NCBI GenBank assembly: GCA_964016885.1
Contig: CAXHJY010000725.1
Location: forward strand, 62,001 to 126,000
Direction: 5' to 3'
Source of the DNA: Eledone cirrhosa
Lineage: Eukaryota
DNA: 64,000 bases
Shown here: in pieces, positions 1,798 to 63,735 of the stretch
Layout: every line of letters starts with the position of its first letter
Position numbering within the stretch: position 1 is the stretch's first letter
The notes under the pieces: model-generated
Told to the model about the DNA's origin: nothing
Seen by the model: only the letters and a program-made list of their open reading frames with translations
Database searches by the model: none
Program-made: the position numbers and the translations under genes

Positions 1798-1854
1798 TAA
1801 AAAAATAATGAATAAAACAATGAAACAGTTCCTTATATTAAACAAAAAAAGTTC

Positions 1855-2003
1855 ATTATTTAACGATCGTTTCTAGGATATATATGTGTTAGAATTGGCA
1901 TGCATATTCAACAGATCTATGTACAAAATTATACAAAATTATACAAACTATCAAAATTAAATATACATACCAAACACATATATATGCCGTCTTCAGAAAT
2001 AAT
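1855..2003 (-). ncRNA. Extended-stem-II hammerhead, family A
   Basis: ATTATTT-CTGAAGA-about 115 nt hairpin-GAAAC-GATC-GTT-AAATAAT. Confidence 0.72.
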
Positions 2004-5879: not shown

Positions 5880-7100
5880 AGAACTACAAGTGAAGTCATT
5901 CTTTTCCTTACGGACCTTAATGTACGCACCCCTCGCACACCCACCATCTACTTCCTCCATAAAATACACAAACAAAATAATCCTGGCCGTACTATCGTTT
6001 CTGCGTGCAACTGCCCCATCGAGATAATTTCTGAATATTTAGACACCAAGTTCGCAACCGTTGGTCGGCAATCTCCTCTCCCACATCCACGTATACAAAT
6101 CATGCCCTTAGACTCTTCAACTCTTTCTCCTTCCCTCCTGCTCCCTCCCGCCATCTCTTTACCCTGGACATCACTTCTCTCTATACCGTAATCCCTCACG
6201 ATGACTGTCTCCGCGCTCTCCAGCATTTTTAACATTTACGCCCTACTCCTTACTCCAGCACTACCACTCTTCTCGGGGCGCCGTATGGCGGACCGTTTTG
6301 CCGAACATTTGAGGGACATACGACTCGGTTTGGATACTCCTGTCGTCCGTCATTTCTGTTCTCCTGGTCATCCTTCCCTACATGTTTCAGTCCTGGGTGT
6401 CCTTTCACATCATGGATCACAGGCCTCGCGCACCAGGACTGAACAAAGTCTGATTCACCGCCTTGGGTCCTATTCCCCTCTTGGACTCAACTCACCTACC
6501 CAATTTCTCTAATACCACATCCATTATCACACCCCTAGTTTCCTATCACTTTCTCTTGATCATTAGCAGCTTCTCTTACAACTAATACATGCCGACTATA
6601 TATGCTCACTCCACATTTCCCTTCACTGCTCTGTATACACACATACACACCCTTATATTAACATACTTTTGCTCATAGCTTCGTACTTACATGCACACAC
6701 ACTCTTTTACTCACATATACACACACATTTCTTCTTAGCTCCGTATAATAACACGCATACACACACATAAACATATGCTTATGCACGTGCACAAATATAG
6801 CTCTTTTTACAAAACGTTTTTTTTTTTCCATTTCAGGTAGACGCGCTCCATCATCCACTTTTCTAAAAAATAAATCATACACAAAACGCCAGCACCAACA
6901 GTTTTGCAAGAGATGTCAACATGAATGGACCTGTTATTTTTATTTAAAGACATTTTTTCGAATTCCATCCCACCCGTCCCCTCAATCTATTTTACTTCTC
7001 ATTCTTTCTTCTGATGAAGGACTAGCGTCCGAAACGTTAAGAACCTCTTCCTACTATATCAAGCGTTAACCTAATAAATACCTTCCACTGTACCCTATTA
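5880..7100 (+). mobile_element. Internally deleted Neptune-type PLE (RT fragment fused to endonuclease tail, 3' UTR, pLTR with HHR)
   Basis: RTPTIYFLHKIHKQNNPGRTIVSACNCP (RT), RRMADRFAEHLRDIR...RHFCSPGH...EQSLIHRLGSYSPLGLN (endonuclease C-terminus), HHR at 7006-7043. Confidence 0.85.
7006..7043 (+). ncRNA. Minimal type I hammerhead (related copies 14624-14660, 44628-44665, 44888-44920)
   Basis: TTCTT-CTGATGA-A-GGAC-TAGC-GTCC-GAAAC-GTT-AAGAA. Confidence 0.85.
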
Positions 7101-10961: not shown

Positions 10962-11006
<45 letters not shown>

Positions 11007-11010
<4 letters not shown>

Positions 11011-11135
11011 CTGAGGACGGCATCATGTATATGTGAAGGTATGTATATTTCCTCTGATAATTTGTAATATTTTTGCATAGATCTATATGATATACATACC
11101 AACACACATATACATCCCAGAAACGATCGTAAAAT
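11007..11135 (+). ncRNA. Extended-stem-II hammerhead, family A
   Basis: ATTT-CTGAGGA-about 100 nt hairpin (ATGTATATGTG/CACATATACAT, GGTATGTATAT/ATATACATACC)-GAAAC-GATC-GTA-AAAT. Confidence 0.72.
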
Positions 11136-11331
11136 GATGAATTTTTTAATATAAAGAACTTGTTCTTTGTGTTTATTTCATTGTTTTTATTAATATATAT
11201 ATATATATATATATATACATACAAGTATCGAGATACATGCGAGCGAGTCCAACCAATACCACTTTTGCTCAATGAAGGAGTTAATAATAATCAACGTTTC
11301 CTTTTCCCAAATATCTTCTGGAGAGAGATAG

Positions 11332-26640: not shown

Positions 26641-27351
26641 CTTTCATCCTTACGGGGTCGATAAAATAAGCACTAGTAATGTACTGGTGTCGATTTAATC
26701 GTCTCCCCCCCCCCCAACAAAAAATTACTGGCCGTATGCCTAAATAAGAAACCATTATTTTCTGGATTGGCAGTATCGGTGGAGATTCAAACGCCATGCT
26801 TTTCAGCATAGAGTTACGGCCCTTTACGGTCTGAGTTCAAATCCCACCGAGGATAACTTTGCCTTTCATCCTTAAAATAAAGTACCAGTAATGCACTAGG
26901 GTAATTCCTGGCCTTGTGCCAAAAGTAGAAATAATTATTATCTCGACTGGACAGATATTATAGCTAAAAAGAAAACGTCAGGTTATGAAGTCCACGTGCC
27001 TTTGCTATAGATATTCAGTATAAAGTAAAATTAACAAGAAGACACATGAATCTAGAAACACTTTGCAAAGTCCTACAAAAAAATTTCTCAACTCAACCTG
27101 AAATGAATTTAATTAAAATTAAATATATATATATATAACATTATATTTAACATTAAATTTATTGGCAGGGGATTGGCAGTATCGGTAGAGGGTCGGACGC
27201 CATGCTTTCCAGCATAGTTACGTCCCTTTACGATCTGAGTTCAAATCCCGCCGAGGTTGACTTTGCCTTTCATCCTTACAGGGTCGATAAAATAAAGTAC
27301 CAGTAATGCACTGAGTAATTGCTGGTCTTGTGCCTAAAGTAGAAACAATTA
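26641..27351 (+). mobile_element. Cluster of three Nin/Deu-like SINE copies
   Basis: Same consensus as 11438. Confidence 0.85.
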
Positions 27352-27389
27352 TATATAAACATTATATATAAATATATATATATATAAAA

Positions 27390-28600
27390 TTGAAAAAGTG
27401 GAGAATAACATGGTCAACAGCACAAAAAAGGGGTTTTATTTGCAATCTAACAATTGTTTCACTGATAAAGTTGTCTAAAAATTGCTGAACACTAAAAGCA
27501 ATGCCAATCAATTTTAAATACGATGTTAGCCCGATCAGATCTTCGGAAACTGTTAAAAAAATATATATGTAACCGGAAAATTTACAAATTCAAATTACAT
27601 CATCAATAATAATATTAATAATAACGATATAGAGAGAAAAGGAGGAAGAAAGGGAGATCGATACAGTAAAGAAAGGAAAGAAAGGCGAAAGAAGAAGGAA
27701 AAAGAAAAAGAAAAAGGGTAAGAAGAAGAAAAAGGAGAAATTATTATAGATAAAAATATAAAGAGAAGATATATAGAAGATGATGGTAGACAGATGAGAG
27801 ACAAACATAAGTAGAAATAACGTAGGATAGAAAGAAGAATAGAGGGACAAATAAATGAATAAACGTTAATACATGAATAAATGTAAATAAAAATAAAAAT
27901 AGATATATAAAAAATATATGAAAAAATATGAGAAAATATATAAAAAAATTGCTAAATAAATAAATAAATAAATATATAAATTACATCTAATGTGATATAA
28001 AATGGTATAAAATGTGAAAAATGAAGAATAAAAATAAATACGTAAAAGAAGTAAAAATGTGCGAAGAATATTTAAACATATTAAAATTATTGAGAATGGT
28101 TTTTGAGAATTGTTAAAATATATGGAGAGATATTAAGGGGAAAATATGATAATGTTAAATATATTTATGTGTGTATTGGTTATTTTAATAAATAAATAAA
28201 TTAATTAGTTTTAAGTTATATTATATGATAAAATAAAATGATAGAGATGAAATAAATTTAGGGATAAAATATAAAGATAGAGAGTGAAAGATAGAAATGT
28301 ATAAAATAAGAATGTAAATGTAAGAGGTTTTGATGTTGTTCTTTGATAGATGATCACAATTATAATTATAATTATGATGATGATGATGCTGATAATGTGA
28401 TATCATAATAGATCCAAGTGGTACAATCTGGGTTATGGAATAGATAAGATGGAATTAACCTGGTCTAAAGTTCTCAAATTTAGTCGCCGATTTATGTCGA
28501 CAAAAAATAATTCTTTCAATTTTACTGTTAAGAGGAATTTTGTTGTAATTTAAAATTTGGAAAAGTTCCATATTACAGAGACCACAGTAGGACATTCCAA
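27390..28600 (-). mobile_element. PLE 3' fragment (endonuclease tail, 3' UTR, pLTR)
   Basis: The minus strand at 28458-28598 reads GMSYCGLCNMELFQILNYNKIPLNSKIERIIFCRHKSATKFENFRPG*, homologous to 29965-30105. The pLTR resembles 29140-29305. Confidence 0.82.
27443..27552 (-). ncRNA. Extended-stem-II hammerhead, family B (CCGAAGA core)
   Basis: CAGTTT-CCGAAGA-TCTGAT...about 80 nt...ATCAGT-GAAAC-AATT-GTT-AGATTG. Confidence 0.68.
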
Positions 28601-28604
28601 TTAT

Positions 28605-28992
28605 ATACAAATAGTAAAAACAATGAAATTAAACAACAAACGGTTAATTCATAGTAAAACCCATTATTTTACGATCGTTTCTGGGGGGTAGTTCCCCATA
28701 TGTTCATTCTATTATTGATCTATGTAAAATATATTACAAAATATCATAAGAAAAAATACATACGTCCTGACCACCCGCCGTCTTCAGGAATATTCATTAT
28801 TTCTGAAGACGGCGGGTGGTTAAGACGTTTGTATTTTTTTTCTTATTGTGATATTTTGTAATATATTTTACATAGATCAATAATAGAATGAACATACGGG
28901 GAACTCCCCCCCCCCAGAAACGATCGTAAAATAATGGGTTTTACTATGAATTAACCGTTTTTTGTTTAATTTCATTGTTTTACTATTTGTAT
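28605..28992. repeat. Fold-back palindrome of two family-A extended hammerheads (28662-28790 on -, 28795-28936 on +)
   Basis: Arms are reverse complements. The + copy has an 8-bp stem I CATTATTT/AAATAATG, CTGAAGA and GAAAC-GATC-GTA. Confidence 0.82.
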
Positions 28993-29139
28993 TTTTGACT
29001 CTGTATCCAATGAATAATATCATTGAACATTTTGTATTTTAAACTTTGCTTCATGACATCTTCTGCATACGGATTACATTGAGTTCTTCATACGGCCTGG
29101 ACCCTACCATTAATTGGTGGATTTATCTATATATATATA

Positions 29140-32100
29140 ATGAAAGATTGAAGAATAACATAGTCGGCTGTACAAAAACGGTTTTATTTCAAGAATTAAC
29201 AATTGTTTCACTGATCAGGTGAGTCTAAAGACCGCTAATCACTCGAAGTTGCGTCACGCGACCTTAAATACAGTGTTTACCTCTGATCAAATCATCGGAA
29301 TACTGGAGGGTTTACATATGGCATTGGTATATATATAGAGAGAGAGATACAACAGAGAATCAAAACAATAACATCAATAATAAAAGATAATGATAAAGAG
29401 GTAAAGAAGATAGAATGAAGATGGTACAGATGTAAAAAATATGTAAAAAAAATAATAAGTACAGAATGCGATTGCTGATAATAGTGGTGGTAGTTAGTAA
29501 GTGTATGTGTAAAGATAATACTAACATGAAAATCAACATAAAAAACATACAAATATACGTGGTGGTCAAATATCAGAGGGATAGAGTAGAAAATAAAAAG
29601 TAACAAATGACAGATAAAAGATAAAAATAATAAATTAAAAATTAAGTGAGAGGGGAAAAGACATGAGGATGAGACATAAGGGGTAGGGCTAAGGACGGCG
29701 AAGGAGTAGATAGGTAGATAGAGTTTAACAATTGAGAGGAAGAGTTTTGATATATGTGTGTGGTAAATTTCTAGCATGCTGATTGTCTTATCTTAATGGG
29801 GTTGATGTGGCTTTAGGGAGAGAGAGTGAAAGAAAGGTTAGATGTATGATGTTGATCTAGTGACCAGTCGGTCAGTTGACAGCTAATAACAGTGGGGTGG
29901 TATGTAGTTAGTACATTGAAATCCGGGTGGTTCAGTTCGAATTTTGGGATTGCTGGATCGAATCATGTTGGTTTGAAATTTGCGAACTTGGTAGCTGATT
30001 TGTGCCTACAGAAAATTGATCGTTCTATTTTGCTGTTAAGCAGCACCTTATCATACTTTAAAATATGGAACAGCTCCATATCGCAAAGTCCTCAGTGGGA
30101 CATTCCGTTGTTGTAGGCCCTTGCTCCCGAGAATTTCGACCAGCTAATCCCATATTCCTGGTTTGTGTCCTTAAGCTGCCAGATTTTATTGGCCAGCGTT
30201 GTTGAGTTCTCTAGTCTACGGTTCTTCATAGAGTATCTGTGAACGTACTATCTTTTTTTTAATTCACCAGCCGTGGAACCTATGTAGTGCCATGTTAAGT
30301 TGCCTGAATTTATAGTACACAGGTACACCATACTTTATTCCAGGCATCTATTTTGTAGTGGGCACTTATCCGGCAGGTGGCAGTTACAGTTGGAGGCCTT
30401 CCTGTGTGCAGGTTCTCCGTTGTGGTTTTGTATGTTGTTATGGATGGGCTAAGATTTAGGCTTATTAATGTTTTGTTGTGATGCGCCCTGATGTGTGTGT
30501 GTGGTTGTGATGTTGTTATGTGTTTGAGTTTTGTATTTGGTGCTATGGTGTATGTTGGTAGGTTATTTTCTTTAGAGATTATTTTGTAGTTGATTTTATC
30601 TATGTGTGATTCTATGTTGGCTGCAGTAGAGTAAGAGAGTTTGATAGTTTTTCTGTTAAAGGTTCTATGGTATTTGTGTAGTTTAGGGAAGTGTTTGTCA
30701 ATTAGCTTAAAGAATGTAGAAGGTAGTTTGGTTTTTTATAGAGGAGTTGAATATTGGATTGAACCATAGGTATTTCCTATCTCTGGGTTTTCTATAGTTC
30801 CTAGGGTCCCTATATTAGTATTCGGTTCAGTTATTTCTGGTGCTCGTCTATTTCTATGTTTAGTTCTATGTTTGTCATTTCTATAGGTGTGGGTAGTGTA
30901 GCTGTCGTTAGGTTTGTTGTTGCTGTTTCTATCTAGTATGTATTTGAGCCCCTCCTTATGGCCTGCCTTATGTAAAGCTATGTTATAGTCGTTTGCGTTT
31001 TCATTAAAAATCTCTAGGTTAGAAGATAGGCGGAATATTCTGAGGGATGTACTATGTGCTATGGAGTTAATTATAGATCGAGGGTGGTTTGAGGTATAAC
31101 TAACGTAGGCTAGATTTTCGTTATTTTTATGGAAGGGCTCTATTAGTCCTGTGTTTAGGTTGAGTGTTACTTCTAAGAGGTTTGCCTTTTTAGAGTTAAA
31201 TTCGAAAGTGATACTTAGGCCTAGTTTGTTGAAGAAGACTCTGATGTTTTGCCTTAATCTTTTTTTAGGTTTTTAGCTAAAAGGAGTGTGTCGTCTCTAT
31301 AAATTCCTCCTTGGAGGTTATTAAATTCCTTATGTAAGTTATGCGCTATATATATTCCAACTATGTCTGTTACCTGTGCTGAGTCGCTAGATCCCATTGT
31401 GATATCGAAGCTATTCTGTCTATTTTTTCGTTCCCAGTAACTATCTTCGAATCTAATGATAGTTCTCCTATCAGCTAGTACTATTCTAATTTCATCAGAG
31501 CTTCGGTCCGAGTTTTTCTGGGCAAAGGCTAGCGCTTTATCTAGGGTGACTGGGGAGATGGAGAAGTAGTAGTCGTTGATGTCAAACTGTACGAAGTTGG
31601 ATGTTTCCCAACTGTCTATTTTGTTGAACCAGTCTATTGCTTCGTTAGTGTTACCCCATAGCTTAATTACTAGTTTGTCCTTGATTTGTGCTATTACTCT
31701 ATCTAGTATATAATTCTATCTATATCCGACTTCGATAGGCATATTAATCTAATTGTGGCGTCTGTTTCGAAATTATTTTTATGATCTTTTCGGTTAAATG
31801 TGGGGTTACAAGGGGTTAGAGGCTCGGTTCTATCAGATATTTTCAGTTTTTTTTTACTATGCTAAGTCATTCCTTATTAATGCTAGTGAGGGCAGATTCT
31901 GTAGTTTTCTTGTATTTTTTGTGCAGTTAACGGCGTGAAAAGTTATTGTATGTATTAAGGCTCATGGTGTATACGTTTGATGTTTTGTCTGCTTTTACTA
32001 TAATACCGTTGGTGTTGCGTAGTTTCTTCAGCAGTGTATTGATGTCGTTTTGCAGTTGTACTTATTTTTTTAACTTATTTTTTACATCTGTACCATCTTC

Positions 32101-32518
32101 ATTCTATCTTCTTTACCTCTTTATCATTATCTTTTATAATTGATTTTATTGTTTTGATTCTCCGTTGAATCTCTCTATATATACCAATGCCATATGTAAA
32201 ACTTCCAGTATTTCGTTGATTTTTATCAGAGGTAAATACTCTATTTAAGGTGGAGTGACGCAGCTTCAAGTGATTAGCGGCCTTTAGACTCACCTGATCA
32301 ATGAAACAATTGTTAATACTTGAAATAAAACCCTTTTTTACAGCCGACCATGTTATTCTTCAATCTTTCACTATTATTACTCCAAGTATAACCTGCATAG
32401 GAATTCTCGCGAACTCGCTACCTAACTATGGAAACCTCTTGTTGAGTCAAACAAAGCCGTACGTTAAAACTATCCACAAACTCTAAATGGATTACCTAAA
32501 ATGATAACTTGTTATCCC

Positions 32519-32520
<2 letters not shown>
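29140..32520 (-). mobile_element. Decayed 5'-truncated PLE with inverted pLTR (same clade as the 58.5-62.9 kb element)
   Basis: The broken ORF at about 29965-32050 has FVQFDINDYYFSISP, FDITMGSSDSAQVTD, GGIYRDD, CNCHLPDKCPLQNRCL and FCRHKSATKF. 32055-32370 is an inverted copy of 29140-29465 and runs on to an ATG-GAT-TAC (MDY) start at about 32487. Confidence 0.88.
29192..29304 (-). ncRNA. Extended-stem-II hammerhead, family B (CCGATGA core); degenerate + copy at 32207-32320
   Basis: AGTATT-CCGATGA-TTTGATCAG...CTGATCAGT-GAAAC-AATT-GTT-AATTCT. Confidence 0.7.
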
Positions 32521-34860: not shown

Positions 34861-35760
34861 TTAAGGATACTATTTATGGTTATGCATATACAAAAACCTT
34901 TTGTAGTTATATATATTTTTACAAACCCTAAATAGTGATAGGCAGTAATATATTACTACCTTATTACCAGTAAGATAAATAGCTCAATGTAATAACATCA
35001 GTTGTTTTACAGAGCAGTTATATATAAGTTATAATAATCAAAGTTCTGTTCAAATCATTTATATGCTTACAATTGTTTCCTCCAAACCGAGGTTTGGATT
35101 CTTCGGAGCAATTTATTAATGAATGATCACATATATGACCTCCTTTTCAACCCAAGAGACATACAGATACATATGCATATATTGTTGCTTGGTGGGTCGA
35201 CATCCATTATAACATTTAGCGTGGCAGTATACATTTAAAGATTACATTCATATCAAAAGAGGATAAAATCAAAATTAATGTTAAAATACAACATGAGATT
35301 AATGCGATAGGATAGTCAGAAGCAGTAAGTGTATGCAATAGTTATACGTGTGGCAAGCACGTGTGTCTTATTTATAAATATTATAGTGCGGCAGGGTGTT
35401 ACAAGTAAAACAAGCACTATAAGCGGGTAAACAAGATTGTTAAGGGGGTTGTCCTGGTAATGTATCTTTTATATGAATGTTATAGAAGCTTGTGTGTAGA
35501 GAAATATTATAAATATTAGAAATATTTAAAATATTAGAAATGTGTAGCAAAGCGATGATATGGTTTTCGTGTACAACACCATTTTCACAGTCCGGAGATC
35601 GTAATATCTAGATTATATGCCCCTCACATAATCCACAACGATTCAATATTGGACGTTTGATGAATCTGTATATAATAATTCCTGGTAAGCTCTGGGTCAG
35701 TGTATGTCAGATTGGATGTCAAAGTTGACTATCACTAGGGTAGACCAGAGGTCAATCGTC
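34860..35760 (-). mobile_element. PLE 3' relic with HHR, nested in a Helitron
   Basis: HHR at 35064-35110, weak RCGLC endonuclease-tail-like remnant near 35630, (TA)n boundary. Confidence 0.5.
35064..35110 (-). ncRNA. Minimal hammerhead with CCGAAGA (U4C) core
   Basis: TGCT-CCGAAGA-A-TCCAAACC-TC-GGTTTGGA-G-GAAAC-AATT-GTA-AGCA. Confidence 0.72.
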
Positions 35761-37077: not shown

Positions 37078-37084
37078 ATATTTA

Positions 37085-37478
37085 GAGAAAGAGTGAAGAA
37101 TAACATGGTCCGCTGTACAAAAAGGGTTTTATTTACAGAATTAACAATTGTTTCATTGATCAGGTGAGTCTAAAGGCCGCTAATCACTCGAAATTGCGTC
37201 TGACGCAATTTCGAGTGATTAGCGGCCTTTAGACTCATCTGATCAATGAAACAATTGTTAATTCTGTAAATAAAACCCTTTTTGTACAGCGGACCATGTT
37301 ATTCTTCACACTTTCTCTACTATTACTCCAAGAATAATCTGCATGGGAATTCTCGCAAACTCGCTACCTAACTAAGGAAACGTCTTGTTGAGTCAAACAG
37401 CGCCATACGTTAAAACTATCCATAGTACAAAGTACTCACTAACTCTAACTGGATTACCTAAAACGATAACTTATTATC

Positions 37479-37480
<2 letters not shown>
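37085..37480. repeat. Family-B pLTR fold-back palindrome (centre about 37201) with extension toward the ORF start
   Basis: 37084-37200 and 37202-37319 are reverse complements and match 32245-32520. Confidence 0.85.
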
Positions 37481-58532: not shown

Positions 58533-59655
58533 TCTATATATATATATATGAAGGAGGTGAGTTTTATTGTAGTACAATAAAGCAATGCAGATATCGGATA
58601 AGAAGCACTCTACAGTTTGTAGGACTGGAGTATACTTAATATATAAGATCAAAAGATGGTTAAAAGAGTTCCATGTATTTTATTATGCGCATTTCAAAAA
58701 CAAATAGCATCATGCAATAACATTTGTGTTTTCATCAGATAAAATAGGAAGACATGATATGAAGGTTAAAAAACACTTGTGGATAGTGCAGTTTTAAATC
58801 AACATATGAAAAGTAGTTTTAGATTGATGTGTGATATTGCAGAAATTTTTTTTGAGGGGGGGGGGGTGTGGAAAGGATGAAAAAGAGGAGGAGATGAGAG
58901 TAAAAAGTGGAGGGGGAGGAGTATAATGAGGAAGGATGAGATAGGAGGAGAGATGGGTGATAGAGAGAGAGAGATAGCTTTTATAACTGAGAAAAGTATA
59001 TTGTTTTACATAGAGAGGTTGAAAAACCGTTGGAAGATAATGTATAAATTAAAAAAATTTGAAAATTAACGAAGAGAAAAATAATGTAAACTTCAGGTTT
59101 GTATATTGAAGGGTTTAATAATATGTGCGATGAAAAGAAATTGTTAATATGTATTAAGAATAATATTTAAGGGTTTAATAATATGTGAGATGGAAAGAAA
59201 ATGTTGATATGTATTATTAAAAATAGCAAAGGTAATGTAAGGATATATTGTGAAAAAAAATAGAAGATAGGATGAAACATGAAAGTGAGAAAAAAATAAT
59301 GAATTGAGGATGAATAATTTAACGTCAAAAAAATGTTTATGTTTACGAAGGATTTTTTCAAGGTGATATAAAGTAAGAATATATTGTATTGTGTAATAAT
59401 TGTTTCTATGTTAGGCACAGTGAGAAAAGGTACAGATTAGGGGTTAGAAATTAAAAGAAAAAGAAAAGAAAAGGAAAAGGAAGAAAGGGAAGTGATAAAT
59501 AGGAGTGATATAGAATGAGTAACAAGTATTATATAATGTATAATAAATAACTTTGAAATAAGGTAGAAAGATGGGTATATTTTTAAAGAAGTATATATAT
59601 ATATATATATATGTGCCTTTGAGAAAAGGATTCTGAATTGCTAAAGTTTAGGATA

Positions 59656-62054
59656 TTAGCTGTATACTTTATGGAATGTTCTGTGGAATTTATGCAAGCA
59701 GAGAGAAAACAAGTCAGTGCGTCTATTTATTATAGAATCTAAATTAGATATAATGGTAAATTTTTCATTTAGACAGAGATTGCAAGTCTTGGATAGAGAA
59801 CTGTTCAAGTATGAAGCAGCAGAAGAAACCTTTTTCCAAGAGATGTTATATTTAATATTTTTGTCTTTCAAGGACCATATGAGTTCTGAGAGAGCCGTGT
59901 TGGTTCTTTTAAGTTGGTATTTAAAAGACGAATGATGATTATAAAGACGAGCTTTAAATGAGGTGGAAGTGGAGCCAAAATAGGTGAAGGAATTGGTATC
60001 GTTATAACTTTACATTCGTAGATTAAGTTTTTATCAAGACAATGGTTGTTGAGAGGACATTTATTTTTAGCAGGGCAATTGCAATTGCGATTAGAGAGAT
60101 TATTAACGAGTGACCTAGTGTTATCTATAGAAGGAATTGGATTGGAGAAGTTATTTGCGATAGGAATAATAGTTTCATGATTTAGAATGGGATTAAGAAC
60201 ATTTAGCGAAGTTGTGTTTGACGTTGTATTTGGGTTTGCAGAAATTAGCCTAGAGTTTACAATGACGTCGGGAGTGCTATTACTAGTATTATGATATTCA
60301 GTGTTGGAAGGAAGAGATTTAGTATTTAGTATTTTATTGTTGTGTTTAGAGATAATGTTGGAAATGTTGGAGGATGTCGAATAGGAAAATGTTATAGTGT
60401 GTTTGTTAAATATTTTACTATAGATATGTGAGGGAGGGAAGCATTTATTTAAGGCACTAAAGAATAATTTAGGAATATTATTATTAATAGAGATGGAGAA
60501 AGGAGCATTATACCAGATTATGTTTTTGTATCTAGGTCTTTTATTAAAGTTATTGGAATGATCATGATTAATTATTCTACTGTAAGTTCTTCTAGAATTT
60601 GTTTCTTTATTATATTTGATTTTATCAGGATAGCCGGCTTTAGAAAGCGCGTTATTATAGTAATTGGCGTTAGCATCAAAGATGTTTTTATTAGAAGATA
60701 GGTTAAATATTCTTTTTCCAATATTACTAACTATAGCATTCTTAATATTAGTAGGGTGGTTAGATTTAAAATTAACATAATTTAGGTTCTCATTGTTTTT
60801 ATGGTAAGGGTAATATAGGCCAGTGTCAAGATTAAGAGATACATCCAAGAAATTAGCTAGTTTGATGCTGTTATCAAATTCAATTTTTAGGTTATGTTGG
60901 ATAAAGAGATTACGTATATTGTTCTTAATAATATTAAGGTTAACTATGTTGCAATTTAAGATAGTAAAGAGTACATCGTCACGATAAATTCCACCGCGAA
61001 GTTGAGGAATTTTCCGACTCAAACAGTTCAAAATAAAGATACCAATTAAATCTGTCAATTGGGATGAATCGGATGCTCCCATTGTGATGTCGAAGTTGTT
61101 AGAGGTATCAGCTCTGGTCCAATATTCATTGTTGAACTCAAGGATGGTTTTACGTGCGGTGAGAATGATGTGAAGTTCATCTGTGGTGATGTCAGAATAT
61201 TTAAATGCGAAAGATAGAGCATTGTTGAGAAGTGAAAGCGAAATAGAAGAATAGTAGCTGGCAATATCAAATTGAACAAATTTTAGTTTGTTTTTATTAT
61301 TCAATTTGTTGAACCAGCCAATCACTTCAGAAGTACCAAACCATAAATTTAAGTTCAAAGAAGAGCAATTAGAACGAACCTGTGGGATAATTCTATCCAA
61401 GATGGCTTTACTAACAACCCCCAGATCTGATTTAGAGGGGGCTATTAATCTAACAGGTAGTTCAGTGCGAAAATTGTTTTTGTGATCCTTGAGATTTATC
61501 CTCGGAGTTCTTGGGAGGAATGGTTCGGTCTTTTTTCCGATGCCAAGTTTTGACATAATCTCAGAGGCTTCAAAGTTTATGGATTCTAAATTATCATGGT
61601 TGGTTTTACGATATTTTTTCCTAAGTTCCTTTATGATAAGGTTGTTATAATTATCCTTGGAAATACCATATAAATTATTGGTTTTGTCAGAGTGGACTAA
61701 AACATTTTTTGAGGAATTTAGGTTTGAAATTGTGTTCTTGAGATTTACAAGGTGCTCTTGTCTTTTGTAAGGGTATCTCTTGAATTTAAGATTTTTTATA
61801 ATATTTGTTAACTCTTCCTCGAATTGCACTAGATTTTTGTTGGAAGGAGGATTTCTTCTAGAATTAAATAGATGATCGAGGAAGTTATGTTTCTTGGTAT
61901 AGAAGTTCCCTTTTAGGCACTGGTCATAGAAATAAGCTATCCATCTAAGTCTTCTTACAAAGGAGTCAGTTTTTTCAATTAGAAGTTTGGTGAATTCAGA
62001 TTTACCAGGTATAGGAATGTCTTTAGTTGAATTGGTTATGTTGTAATAATCCAT
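59656..62054 (-). CDS. Penelope-like element polyprotein (RT + C-terminal GIY-YIG endonuclease), one frameshift near 60001
   Basis: The 728-aa ORF has PLE RT motifs FVQFDIASYYSSI, FDITMGASDS, GIYRDD and FLDVSLNL, then CNCPAKNKCPLNNHCL and NLIYECKV. A shifted frame continues TYFGSTSTSFKARLYNH...CNLCLNEK...CLH to the stop at 59656. Confidence 0.93.
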
Positions 62055-62778
62055 GTTGTAGAAGAAAAAGGTAAAGGACTATCAAAAGGTATATAATATG
62101 AGAGTTAGCGCTCAACAGTTAAGGAGCAAGTTAATGTAGGAGGTGAGTTTTATTGTAGTACAATAAAGCAATGCAGATATCGGATAAGAAGCACTCTACA
62201 GTTTGTAGGACTGGAGTATACATAATATATAAGATCAAAAGATGGTTAAAAGAGTTCCATGTATTTTATTATGCGCATTTCAAAAACAAATATCATCATG
62301 CAATAACATTTGTGTTTTCATCAGATAAAATAGGAAGACTCCATCGCACATATTATTAAACCCTTAAATATTATTCTTAATACATATTAACAATTTCTTT
62401 TCATCGCACATATTATTAAACCTTTCAATATACAAACTTTAACTTTACATTATTTTTCTCTTCGTTAATTTTCAAATTCTTTTAATTTATACATTATCTT
62501 CCAACGGTTTTTCAACCTCTGTATGTAAAACAATATACTTTTCTCAGTTATAAAAGCTATCTCTCTCTCTCTATCACCCATCTCTCCTCCTATCTCATCC
62601 TTCCTCATTATACTCCTCCCCCTCCACTCTTTACTCTCATCTCCTCCTCTTTTCATCCCCCCCCCCCTCAACATTTTTTTCTCCCTAATATCTCACATCA
62701 ATCTAAAACTATTTTTGATATGTTGATTTAAAACTGCACTATCCACAAGTGTTTTTTAACCTTCATATCATGTCTTCC

Positions 62779-62849
62779 TATTTTATCTGATGAAAAGACA
62801 AATGTTATTGCATGATGCTATTTGTTTTTGAAATGCGCATAATAAAATA
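62779..62849 (+). ncRNA. Type I hammerhead ribozyme in PLE pLTR (copies on - strand at about 58676-58746 and 62262-62332)
   Basis: TATTTTAT-CTGATGA-[stem II ACAAAT/ATTTGT]-GAAA-TGCGCA-TA-ATAAAATA: 8-bp stem I, palindromic stem III, AUA triplet. Confidence 0.85.
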
Positions 62850-62879
62850 CATGGAACTCTTTTAACCATCTTTTGTTCT

Positions 62880-62927
<48 letters not shown>

Positions 62928-63593: not shown

Positions 63594-63735
63594 CAAAACA
63601 AAAAATATATCTTTTGTCGCATCACCAGTCTGAGAAGCAGATCGATATTGGAGTCGGGTCTGGGTCCATAACTTTTATGGTCCCCTTGAGCCAATGCTCT
63701 GCGAAACGCGCGTAACAGGTCGATACGCAATAAAT
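63594..63735 (-). pseudogene. Tudor-core-like exon candidate with apparent 2-nt deletion
   Basis: TCYARFAEHWLKGTIKVMDPDPTPISICFSD, then a shift to GDATKD, resembles C.A.F...W.R..I..V...V.F.DYG; TTG|GTATGT donor. Confidence 0.42.

Follow-up and report, generated by a model that had tools for sequence, protein, structure and literature searches.

A 64-kb window of DNA from Eledone cirrhosa (contig CAXHJY010000725.1, positions 62,001 to 126,000), analysed here on both strands, contains two families of hammerhead ribozyme motif, A and B, in which stem II is drawn out into a long arm. Judged by its sequence, family B is a hammerhead motif of type I, with an arm about 80 nt long, and lies in the terminal repeat of a Penelope-like element (PLE) of the Hydra clade that is now broken; family A likely arose within the same host-restricted radiation of Hydra elements. 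The reading that we favor, at close to even odds (about 0.48), is that the two families share a predicted internal loop, ANUU opposite UAG, which likely serves as a host-protein site. That Hydra elements carry hammerheads is already in print; what is probably new, on thin sampling, is that in some hammerheads of this clade stem II is several-fold longer and contains an internal loop that is probably conserved.

A predicted loop common to two dissimilar arms

All of the family B copies named in an earlier note on this DNA were found, namely three full motifs and the 3' halves near 37201 (Table 1), and an nhmmer search over the window returned no B or A copies beyond those in Table 1. From stem I, family B runs through CCGANGA and a U.U first pair into the arm (79, 82, or 83 nt in the full copies), which is followed by GAA, the palindrome ACAAUUGU, and U17. 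In the subfamily 1 copy (B27546), GAAA begins at 27460, stem III is the palindrome ACAAUUGU, and the cut is predicted after GUU (27449). In the subfamily 2 copy (B29298), the loop strands lie at 29270-29266 and 29227-29224 and the predicted cut follows 29198; this motif stands ~665 nt downstream of the stop of the open reading frame (ORF), on the same strand, and ~60 nt before the short end of the element (29140). The first box reads CCGANGA instead of CUGANGA in both intact copies (a change designated U4C) and is decayed in the third, at 32204-32322 (+), where the core is UCGUUGA and the G that closes the loop has become C; GAAA and GUU are present. A CCGAUGA box also occurs in one related Hydra locus, L110. 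Stem I is an open helix of 5-6 bp with three two-sided changes, the proximal helix of stem II has 5 bp, and stem III dimerizes in silico (-10.2 kcal/mol) and has no fold as a monomer. In the two truncated copies at 37083..37480, the arm is reduced to its 3' half, which contains the UAG strand.

The earlier note had proposed that a conserved RNA module is common to the two families, and this is borne out by a motif that recurs above chance, and by conservation of the loop columns, in two PLE hammerhead arms that otherwise cannot be aligned. Defined as UANUU and UAGA with two outer and four inner pairs, the motif has eight matches on the two strands of the window, six in A or B arms and two by chance. 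Dinucleotide shuffles of the two intact B arms reproduced it exactly in 29 and 16 of 20000 trials (~0.1%). Between the B subfamilies, the loop and its closing positions are identical at 10/10 columns, as against 42/71 of the other columns (hypergeometric p 0.009), and no invariant stretch of the arm is longer than the two formed by the loop strands. In family A the loop is invariant except at N (G, A, U, U); that this base varies while its neighbors are fixed is expected if it is flipped out. Outside the loop, local alignment of A with B arms scored at the level of shuffles in 6/6 pairs, and homology of the whole arms was rejected for this reason. The loop was not present in nine arms from eight other hammerhead families of the window, in family C (the sister of family B), or in any of 57 other Hydra arms; in 737 kb of related loci, the motif had 11 matches, all outside arms.

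Compensatory change in the inner helix of family B, also claimed in the earlier note, was confirmed: AAAAUUG/CAAUUUU stands against AAGGUCG/CGGUCUU, with three of the seven pairs changed on both sides and one on one side. Two-sided changes affect 6/26 pairs of the drawn structure (three in stem I, three in the 7-bp inner helix), a count matched by 2/500 shuffles; the structure was drawn from the same sequences on which covariation was scored, the shuffle control ignores relatedness, and nearly all of these changes stem from one subfamily contrast. The loop belongs to the lowest-energy fold of B27546 (closing-pair probability 0.33) and of 4/4 family A copies (0.92-0.95), whose arms are stable relative to shuffles (z -1.5 to -7.1). 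A further statement of the note, that both families place the same 4x3 loop mid-arm, stands for the loop strands, which are present in B27546, B29298, and all four A copies; their position differs, as in B they sit mid-arm, 20-22 nt from the core and enclosing 38 nt, and in A near the tip, 38-43 nt from the core and enclosing 15-26 nt.

A number of results weigh against a shared, protein-binding loop. The motif was selected after the sequences had been seen, and its p-values overstate the case because it was picked after the fact; the sample comprises only two independent B and three A subfamilies. Taken alone, invariant runs of 8 and 7 are unremarkable (P 0.30). In family A, the helices next to the loop are as invariant as the loop itself (9/10), so that a loop better conserved than the remainder of the arm is seen in B but has no counterpart in A, and the 20 pairs drawn for A show no excess of covariation (173/500 shuffles did as well). 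For family B, the stability of the arms does not exceed that of shuffled sequence (z -0.07 to -0.9). In B29298 the loop comes at a cost of 2.7 kcal/mol (closing-pair probability 0.02), and in the 32204 copy, in which the core has also decayed, it is broken, so it is the favored fold in only 1/3 full B copies; its closure on the core side is only 2 bp, and RNAalifold draws a single 13x7 loop at that place. To these are added the U4C change in the family B core and the lack of any coding sequence attached to the four family A copies in the window.

Several of these points would suit a different account, in which the long arms are real and the loop is either a coincidence in AU-rich hairpins or a functionless ancestral remnant. 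A motif of eight mostly A/U letters, chosen post hoc, appears in 61 and 50 of 4000 shuffled B arms (~1.4%) once one mismatch is allowed, and its chance matches in the window and in related loci, its different position in A and B, its weak folding in B, and its absence from the other arms of the window are all compatible with chance. Such an account has to accommodate the rarity of the exact motif among shuffles and the retention of the loop in both B subfamilies although 4/7 adjacent pairs have changed, as well as its invariance in three A subfamilies. We hold it to be unlikely and, from the sequence comparisons, consider that the sharing of the loop between A and B is more probably real than not.

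Possible roles of the loop

If the loop is indeed a protein site, the following sequence of events may be envisaged. Two ribozyme copies would pair through their palindromic stem III and cut slowly, as a dimer, after GUU. The arm would be directed away from the core, as an appendage dispensable for the chemistry, and the loop might stack as a series of non-canonical pairs (A.G, the flipped-out N, U.A, and U.U). It could then act as a protein handle on the element RNA, for help in folding or for RNA handling, and may have been inherited or exchanged within the radiation as the rest of the arm diverged. The internal loop of the sarcin-ricin or loop E type has the consensus AGUA/GAA. The window loop is like it in its 4x3 size, its A, its variable bulge (G in one A copy), and the U opposite A; it differs in having U.U as the last pair in place of a sheared A.G, and A.G as the first pair in place of A.A. 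Identity with this class was rejected, since ANUU/UAG does not fit the consensus.

Elements of this scheme have precedents. Where stem III is palindromic, Penelope hammerheads work as dimers, and their cleavage is poor (PMC4209133, PMC6765202), and an anole Penelope ribozyme cleaved only with protein, although insertion in vitro did not need the ribozyme (PMC11167929). A U.U first pair is tolerated in hammerheads (PMC3088659); the accessible text of the same source gave no figure for U4C. Penelope hammerheads cleave poorly alone, and at least one needs protein; a loop conserved on an arm whose deletion or mutation leaves the core untouched would offer a direct handle on which protein helps, and why. 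Doubtful, in our estimation, is the wider proposal that, in one animal lineage, stem II of Hydra-clade hammerheads became an 80-116-nt platform with an undescribed, portable, protein-recruiting 4x3 motif that regulates the ribozyme or the retrotransposon RNA. If true, this would be a case of a hammerhead module gated by protein in nature and put to use by several families of element.

The earlier note had offered two roles in place of a host-protein site. The first, recognition by the reverse transcriptase (RT), is weakened: the loop is missing from B's sister element C and from the 57 other Hydra arms, absences that speak against an RT site of general use. A lineage-specific site for the element's own RT-endonuclease would fit the position of the loop, ~60-130 nt upstream of the short end of the element, and the aid that a Penelope ORF protein gives to its hammerhead in vitro (PMC11167929). 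It would have to explain why the loop is missing in a family whose RT is sister to that of B; moreover, the minimal template of the anole element lies within the first 172 nt of the ORF (PMC11167929), and a hairpin in the tail of Hydra elements is a better candidate for an RT handle. We therefore regard an own-RT site as distinctly unlikely.

The tail hairpin, RCUC..UUGAGY, was found downstream of the hammerhead in 45/64 Hydra loci and in 0/47 upstream controls, mostly 40-70 nt past the hammerhead, at the boundary between the short and the long end of the element. In the window it follows 6/17 tested hammerheads (two of family B and one each of A, C, D, and G), at 28998-29084, 32379-32447 (in the long tail of the repeat at 32062..32520), and 37325-37393 (in the long tail borne by the right-hand copy of 37083..37480), and downstream of 62324, 41199, and 35106; 0/4 minimal non-Hydra hammerheads have it. 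The main text of PMC8557442, as available, has no match for "hairpin" or "stem-loop", yet RCUC..UUGAGY is visible in its consensus sequences. Present in most Hydra elements, the hairpin offers itself as a candidate element for RT recognition or initiation.

The conserved letters might instead be splice signals of a short intron in stem II, with UAG as the 3' splice site, whose removal would switch the ribozyme to a short arm. The invariant blocks of family A are ordered GUAUGU, UGAU, CAUAG|A; a strict pattern of 5' site, branch, and YAG fits 3/4 A copies (shuffles, 1.6-7%); and the GUAUGU strand is nearly fixed in A while its partner varies one-sidedly. Removing GU..AG (47 nt) from B leaves an arm of 32-35 nt with a fold like those of families C-E, and Penelope terminal repeats are known to contain introns. 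These patterns were, however, composed after the sequences were seen, and B fits only a loose version that 12-25% of shuffles also meet; no pair of spliced and unspliced copies was observed. The putative introns, of 42-56 nt, also fall far short of the 105-nt short-intron mode of Octopus bimaculoides (PMC6157073), a mode that may not be the host's. We allow splicing a slim chance.

To the second role put forward earlier, a tertiary contact, we allow a slimmer one. Full-length hammerheads owe their fast cleavage to loop-loop contacts made from stem II (PMC3088659), and a stacked non-canonical loop could serve as a receptor, either within one ribozyme or between the two of a dimer. The loop nevertheless lies ~20 nt farther from the core in A than in B, a difference that speaks against a fixed contact with the core; stem I has only 5-6 bp, and no conserved partner loop was seen.

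The slimmest chance goes to the possibility that the loop tunes A-to-I editing, with its seven nucleotides interrupting a long duplex for ADAR and presenting UAG. This triplet is preferred for ADAR editing. Internal loops of >=6 nt act as helix ends, and editing is abundant in coleoid cephalopods (PMC11019741); the fixed ANUU letters would be left without explanation, and the B arms are short, broken helices. Returning to the host-protein site, none of these alternatives is given the weight that we assign to it.

Arm length among Hydra-clade hammerheads

To place the arms of the window among those of other Hydra elements, homologues were searched with an alignment of the most intact Hydra ORF of the window and 8/11 homologues, and 94 related loci (78 from metagenomes and 16 from genome bins) were compared. 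Hammerheads were found in 62/94, with 57 distinct arms of 10-25 nt, among which 20 begin with U.U, two begin with C.A, and six cut after U. Two long arms from the first scan were dropped: that of L075 (164 nt) had been mis-parsed by the rule and really starts with a 10-nt arm, and that of L149 (196 nt) had a non-Hydra stem III in coding-like sequence. A relaxed rescan of 28 related loci yielded only arms of 10-12 nt, and loop 2 is <=10 nt in the rows for Hydra elements in PMC8557442, File S2. On the basis of this survey and these rows, the U.U first pair and the GUU triplet are ordinary for Hydra, and an arm of 79-116 nt is not: stem II of families A and B exceeds in length that of related elements of other animals at least threefold. 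The remaining hammerhead families of the window have arms of 17-66 nt, and arm lengthening is therefore a trend in this host.

The published Hydra-clade hammerheads, including Hydra-1_oBim (PMC8557442, File S2), are the nearest known relatives considered. They have the same type I layout, CUGANGA-N...N-GAA-AC..GU-H, and share a frequent U.U first pair, GUU, a place near the 3' end, (TA)n, DKT, and CxCx5C. The window families differ in arm length (79-116 vs ~10-25 nt), in U4C (family B), in an 8-nt palindromic stem III, and in the conserved internal loop of the A and B arms, which is undescribed in the parts of the text and table of PMC8557442 covered. Minimal metazoan PLE hammerheads (PMC4209133) are similar in their terminal-repeat location, palindromic stem III, predicted dimeric cleavage, and many families per genome. 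They have a helix II of 6-8 bp with a small loop, whereas the window has a multi-helix arm with internal loops, and assignment of A and B to this class was ruled out by the length of their arms. PLE-X1 hammerheads of Selaginella (PMC8557442, File S2) likewise have an enlarged loop 2, of ~30-35 nt; they come from another clade, in plants, are less than half as long in the arm, and lack the shared loop in the table rows covered. A non-LTR retrozyme (long terminal repeat, LTR) was ruled out, as the hammerhead copies are dispersed or inverted and do not form head-to-tail tandem units.

Neither long-armed Hydra hammerheads nor the shared loop were found in the literature accessible to us; long-arm variants could sit in the supplementary figures of PMC4209133 or in bioRxiv supplements. 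The accessible portions of PMC6155905, PMC6962438, PMC8557442, and bioRxiv 10.64898/2026.07.22.740005 do not describe the long arm or the loop, and that of PMC13644364 has nothing on molluscs. Rfam gave no matches across the window at the gathering threshold; at E up to 10, the segment 27380-28940 gave 24 sub-threshold matches, mostly to hairpin models on the inverted repeat of family A, none of them a hammerhead. Arms of this length escape standard hammerhead descriptors as well as Rfam, and such ribozymes are therefore probably undercounted. Scanning viral contigs for the family B pattern gave 61 matches in 60 stretches; three had a core-like box, and the matches are attributed to chance because the inner helix was present in 0/61. 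A protein scan of viral contigs gave no match.

Several other hammerheads of the window deserve mention. One hammerhead-like motif, at 63620-63725 (+), has a 66-nt arm (-25 kcal/mol), stem III ACGCGCGU, and a core one mismatch off the consensus; the shared loop is not present in it. Another, at 35065-35115 (-), combines the family B core CCGAAGA and stem III ACAAUUGU with a 20-nt arm, and is possibly a short-armed relative of family B. Families with arms of 17-36 nt lie at 1153, 4013, 4219, 23744, 39170, 41199, 41351, 48214, and 53761, several of them with an 8-nt palindromic stem III, a length found in 1/57 outside arms. Ordinary minimal hammerheads of another Penelope type, with 13-nt arms, occur at 7011, 14629, 39488, 44633, and 44890. 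Among the related loci, L139-L154 are Hydra-type animal retroelements within contigs of prokaryote genome bins, most likely through host contamination.

Host elements and neighboring features

The earlier note had linked family B physically to RT and GIY-YIG coding sequence, and this link was confirmed: 28448-28601 encodes the C-terminus of an endonuclease only, and 29963-32050 a broken ORF for RT and endonuclease. Over 52 aa, the amino-acid sequence of the former is 73% identical to that of the main B element. In the B ORF, DKT replaces DKG (ADKTSN), and the CxCx5C linker reads CNCHLPDKC and is followed by YIG, with a single cysteine between the two (by eye). Truncation at the 5' end removes the position of the N-terminal RWK, at which sister family C reads LRWIAYF; Pfam GIY-YIG scored the family C endonuclease at E 0.017, below the cut-off. 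An inverted repeat flanks the B element (29137-29455 with 32062-32374), and all checked B ends adjoin TA repeats or TA-rich sequence. The B element was assigned to the Hydra clade because these ORF motifs match the marks (DKT, CxCx5C, and (TA)n targets) defined in section 11 of PMC8557442. In an unrooted FastTree of RTs (73 rows, from 95 before near-duplicate removal), the three Hydra RTs of the window formed one clade (support 0.959), a grouping that long branches and AT bias could inflate, and the RT of family B was sister to that of family C (support 0.963; 47.5% identity over 440 aa).

Family A carries Hydra-type non-coding hallmarks: inverted ends of a short and a long kind, (TA)n targets, the RCUC..UUGAGY hairpin in its long tail, a C.A first pair that recurs in Hydra locus L121, and an 8-nt palindromic stem III like those of families B, C, D, E, G, H, and K, a length rare outside the window. 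The claim that the loop was grafted onto distinct PLE lineages is therefore unsupported, B being of the Hydra clade and A bearing its hallmarks, and a simpler account than grafting from one lineage to another is that the loop was passed on by descent, or exchanged, inside a single clade. The stem III motifs of A and B had no matches in the accessible consensus files of PMC8557442, where line breaks could hide one; a Naiad origin of family A was rejected because its stem III motif was not found in those files.

Table 1. Positions of the family A and family B features in the 64-kb window
Feature	Position	Strand	Details
Family A hammerhead, 116-nt arm	1854..2003	-	loop AGUU/UAG, 1949-1946 and 1919-1917
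Family A hammerhead, 102-nt arm	11005..11139	+	loop AAUU/UAG, 11059-11062 and 11078-11080
5'-truncated Hydra element	27345..28601	-	endonuclease C-terminus 28601-28448, AT-rich 3' untranslated region, hammerhead, end at (TA)n
Family B hammerhead, subfamily 1 (B27546)	27442..27554	-	core CCGAAGA 27546-27540; 79-nt stem II arm 27539-27461
Predicted shared loop, B subfamily 1	27474..27520	-	U-AUUU 27520-27516; UAG-A 27477-27474; encloses 7-bp helix and tip
Family A hammerhead, 99-nt arm	28661..28794	-	loop strands 28743-28739 and 28722-28719; left arm of inverted pair
Family A hammerhead, 107-nt arm	28796..28937	+	loop strands 28852-28856 and 28873-28876; right arm of inverted pair
Family A long-end tail	28998..29127	+	Hydra-linked RCUC..UUGAGY hairpin 28998-29084; ends at (TA)n
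Family B hammerhead, subfamily 2 (B29298)	29190..29307	-	core CCGAUGA 29298-29292; 82-nt arm
Hydra-clade ORF, broken, 5'-truncated	29963..32050	-	interrupted by several stops and frameshifts; motifs ADKT and YRDD, linker CNCHLPDKC, endonuclease of GIY-YIG type at the C-terminus
B-element inverted terminal repeat	32062..32520	+	decayed hammerhead and long tail; ends at (TA)n
Two 5'-truncated B copies, back to back	37083..37480	.	palindrome 37083-37319, 97.9%

The DNA of the window is AT-rich and rich in microsatellites. Next to a B copy, at 27170-27390, lies a high-copy short interspersed repeat with >15 matches, which we take to resemble an octopus short interspersed nuclear element. One RT of the window is similar, by eye, to Hydra-1_Obim, and together with this repeat it would suggest an octopus as host. 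Family C itself, at 58547-62880, is a nearly intact Hydra element with a 728-aa frame and one frameshift in the endonuclease; it has both tandem and inverted terminal repeats, and its hammerhead has a 36-nt arm without the shared loop.

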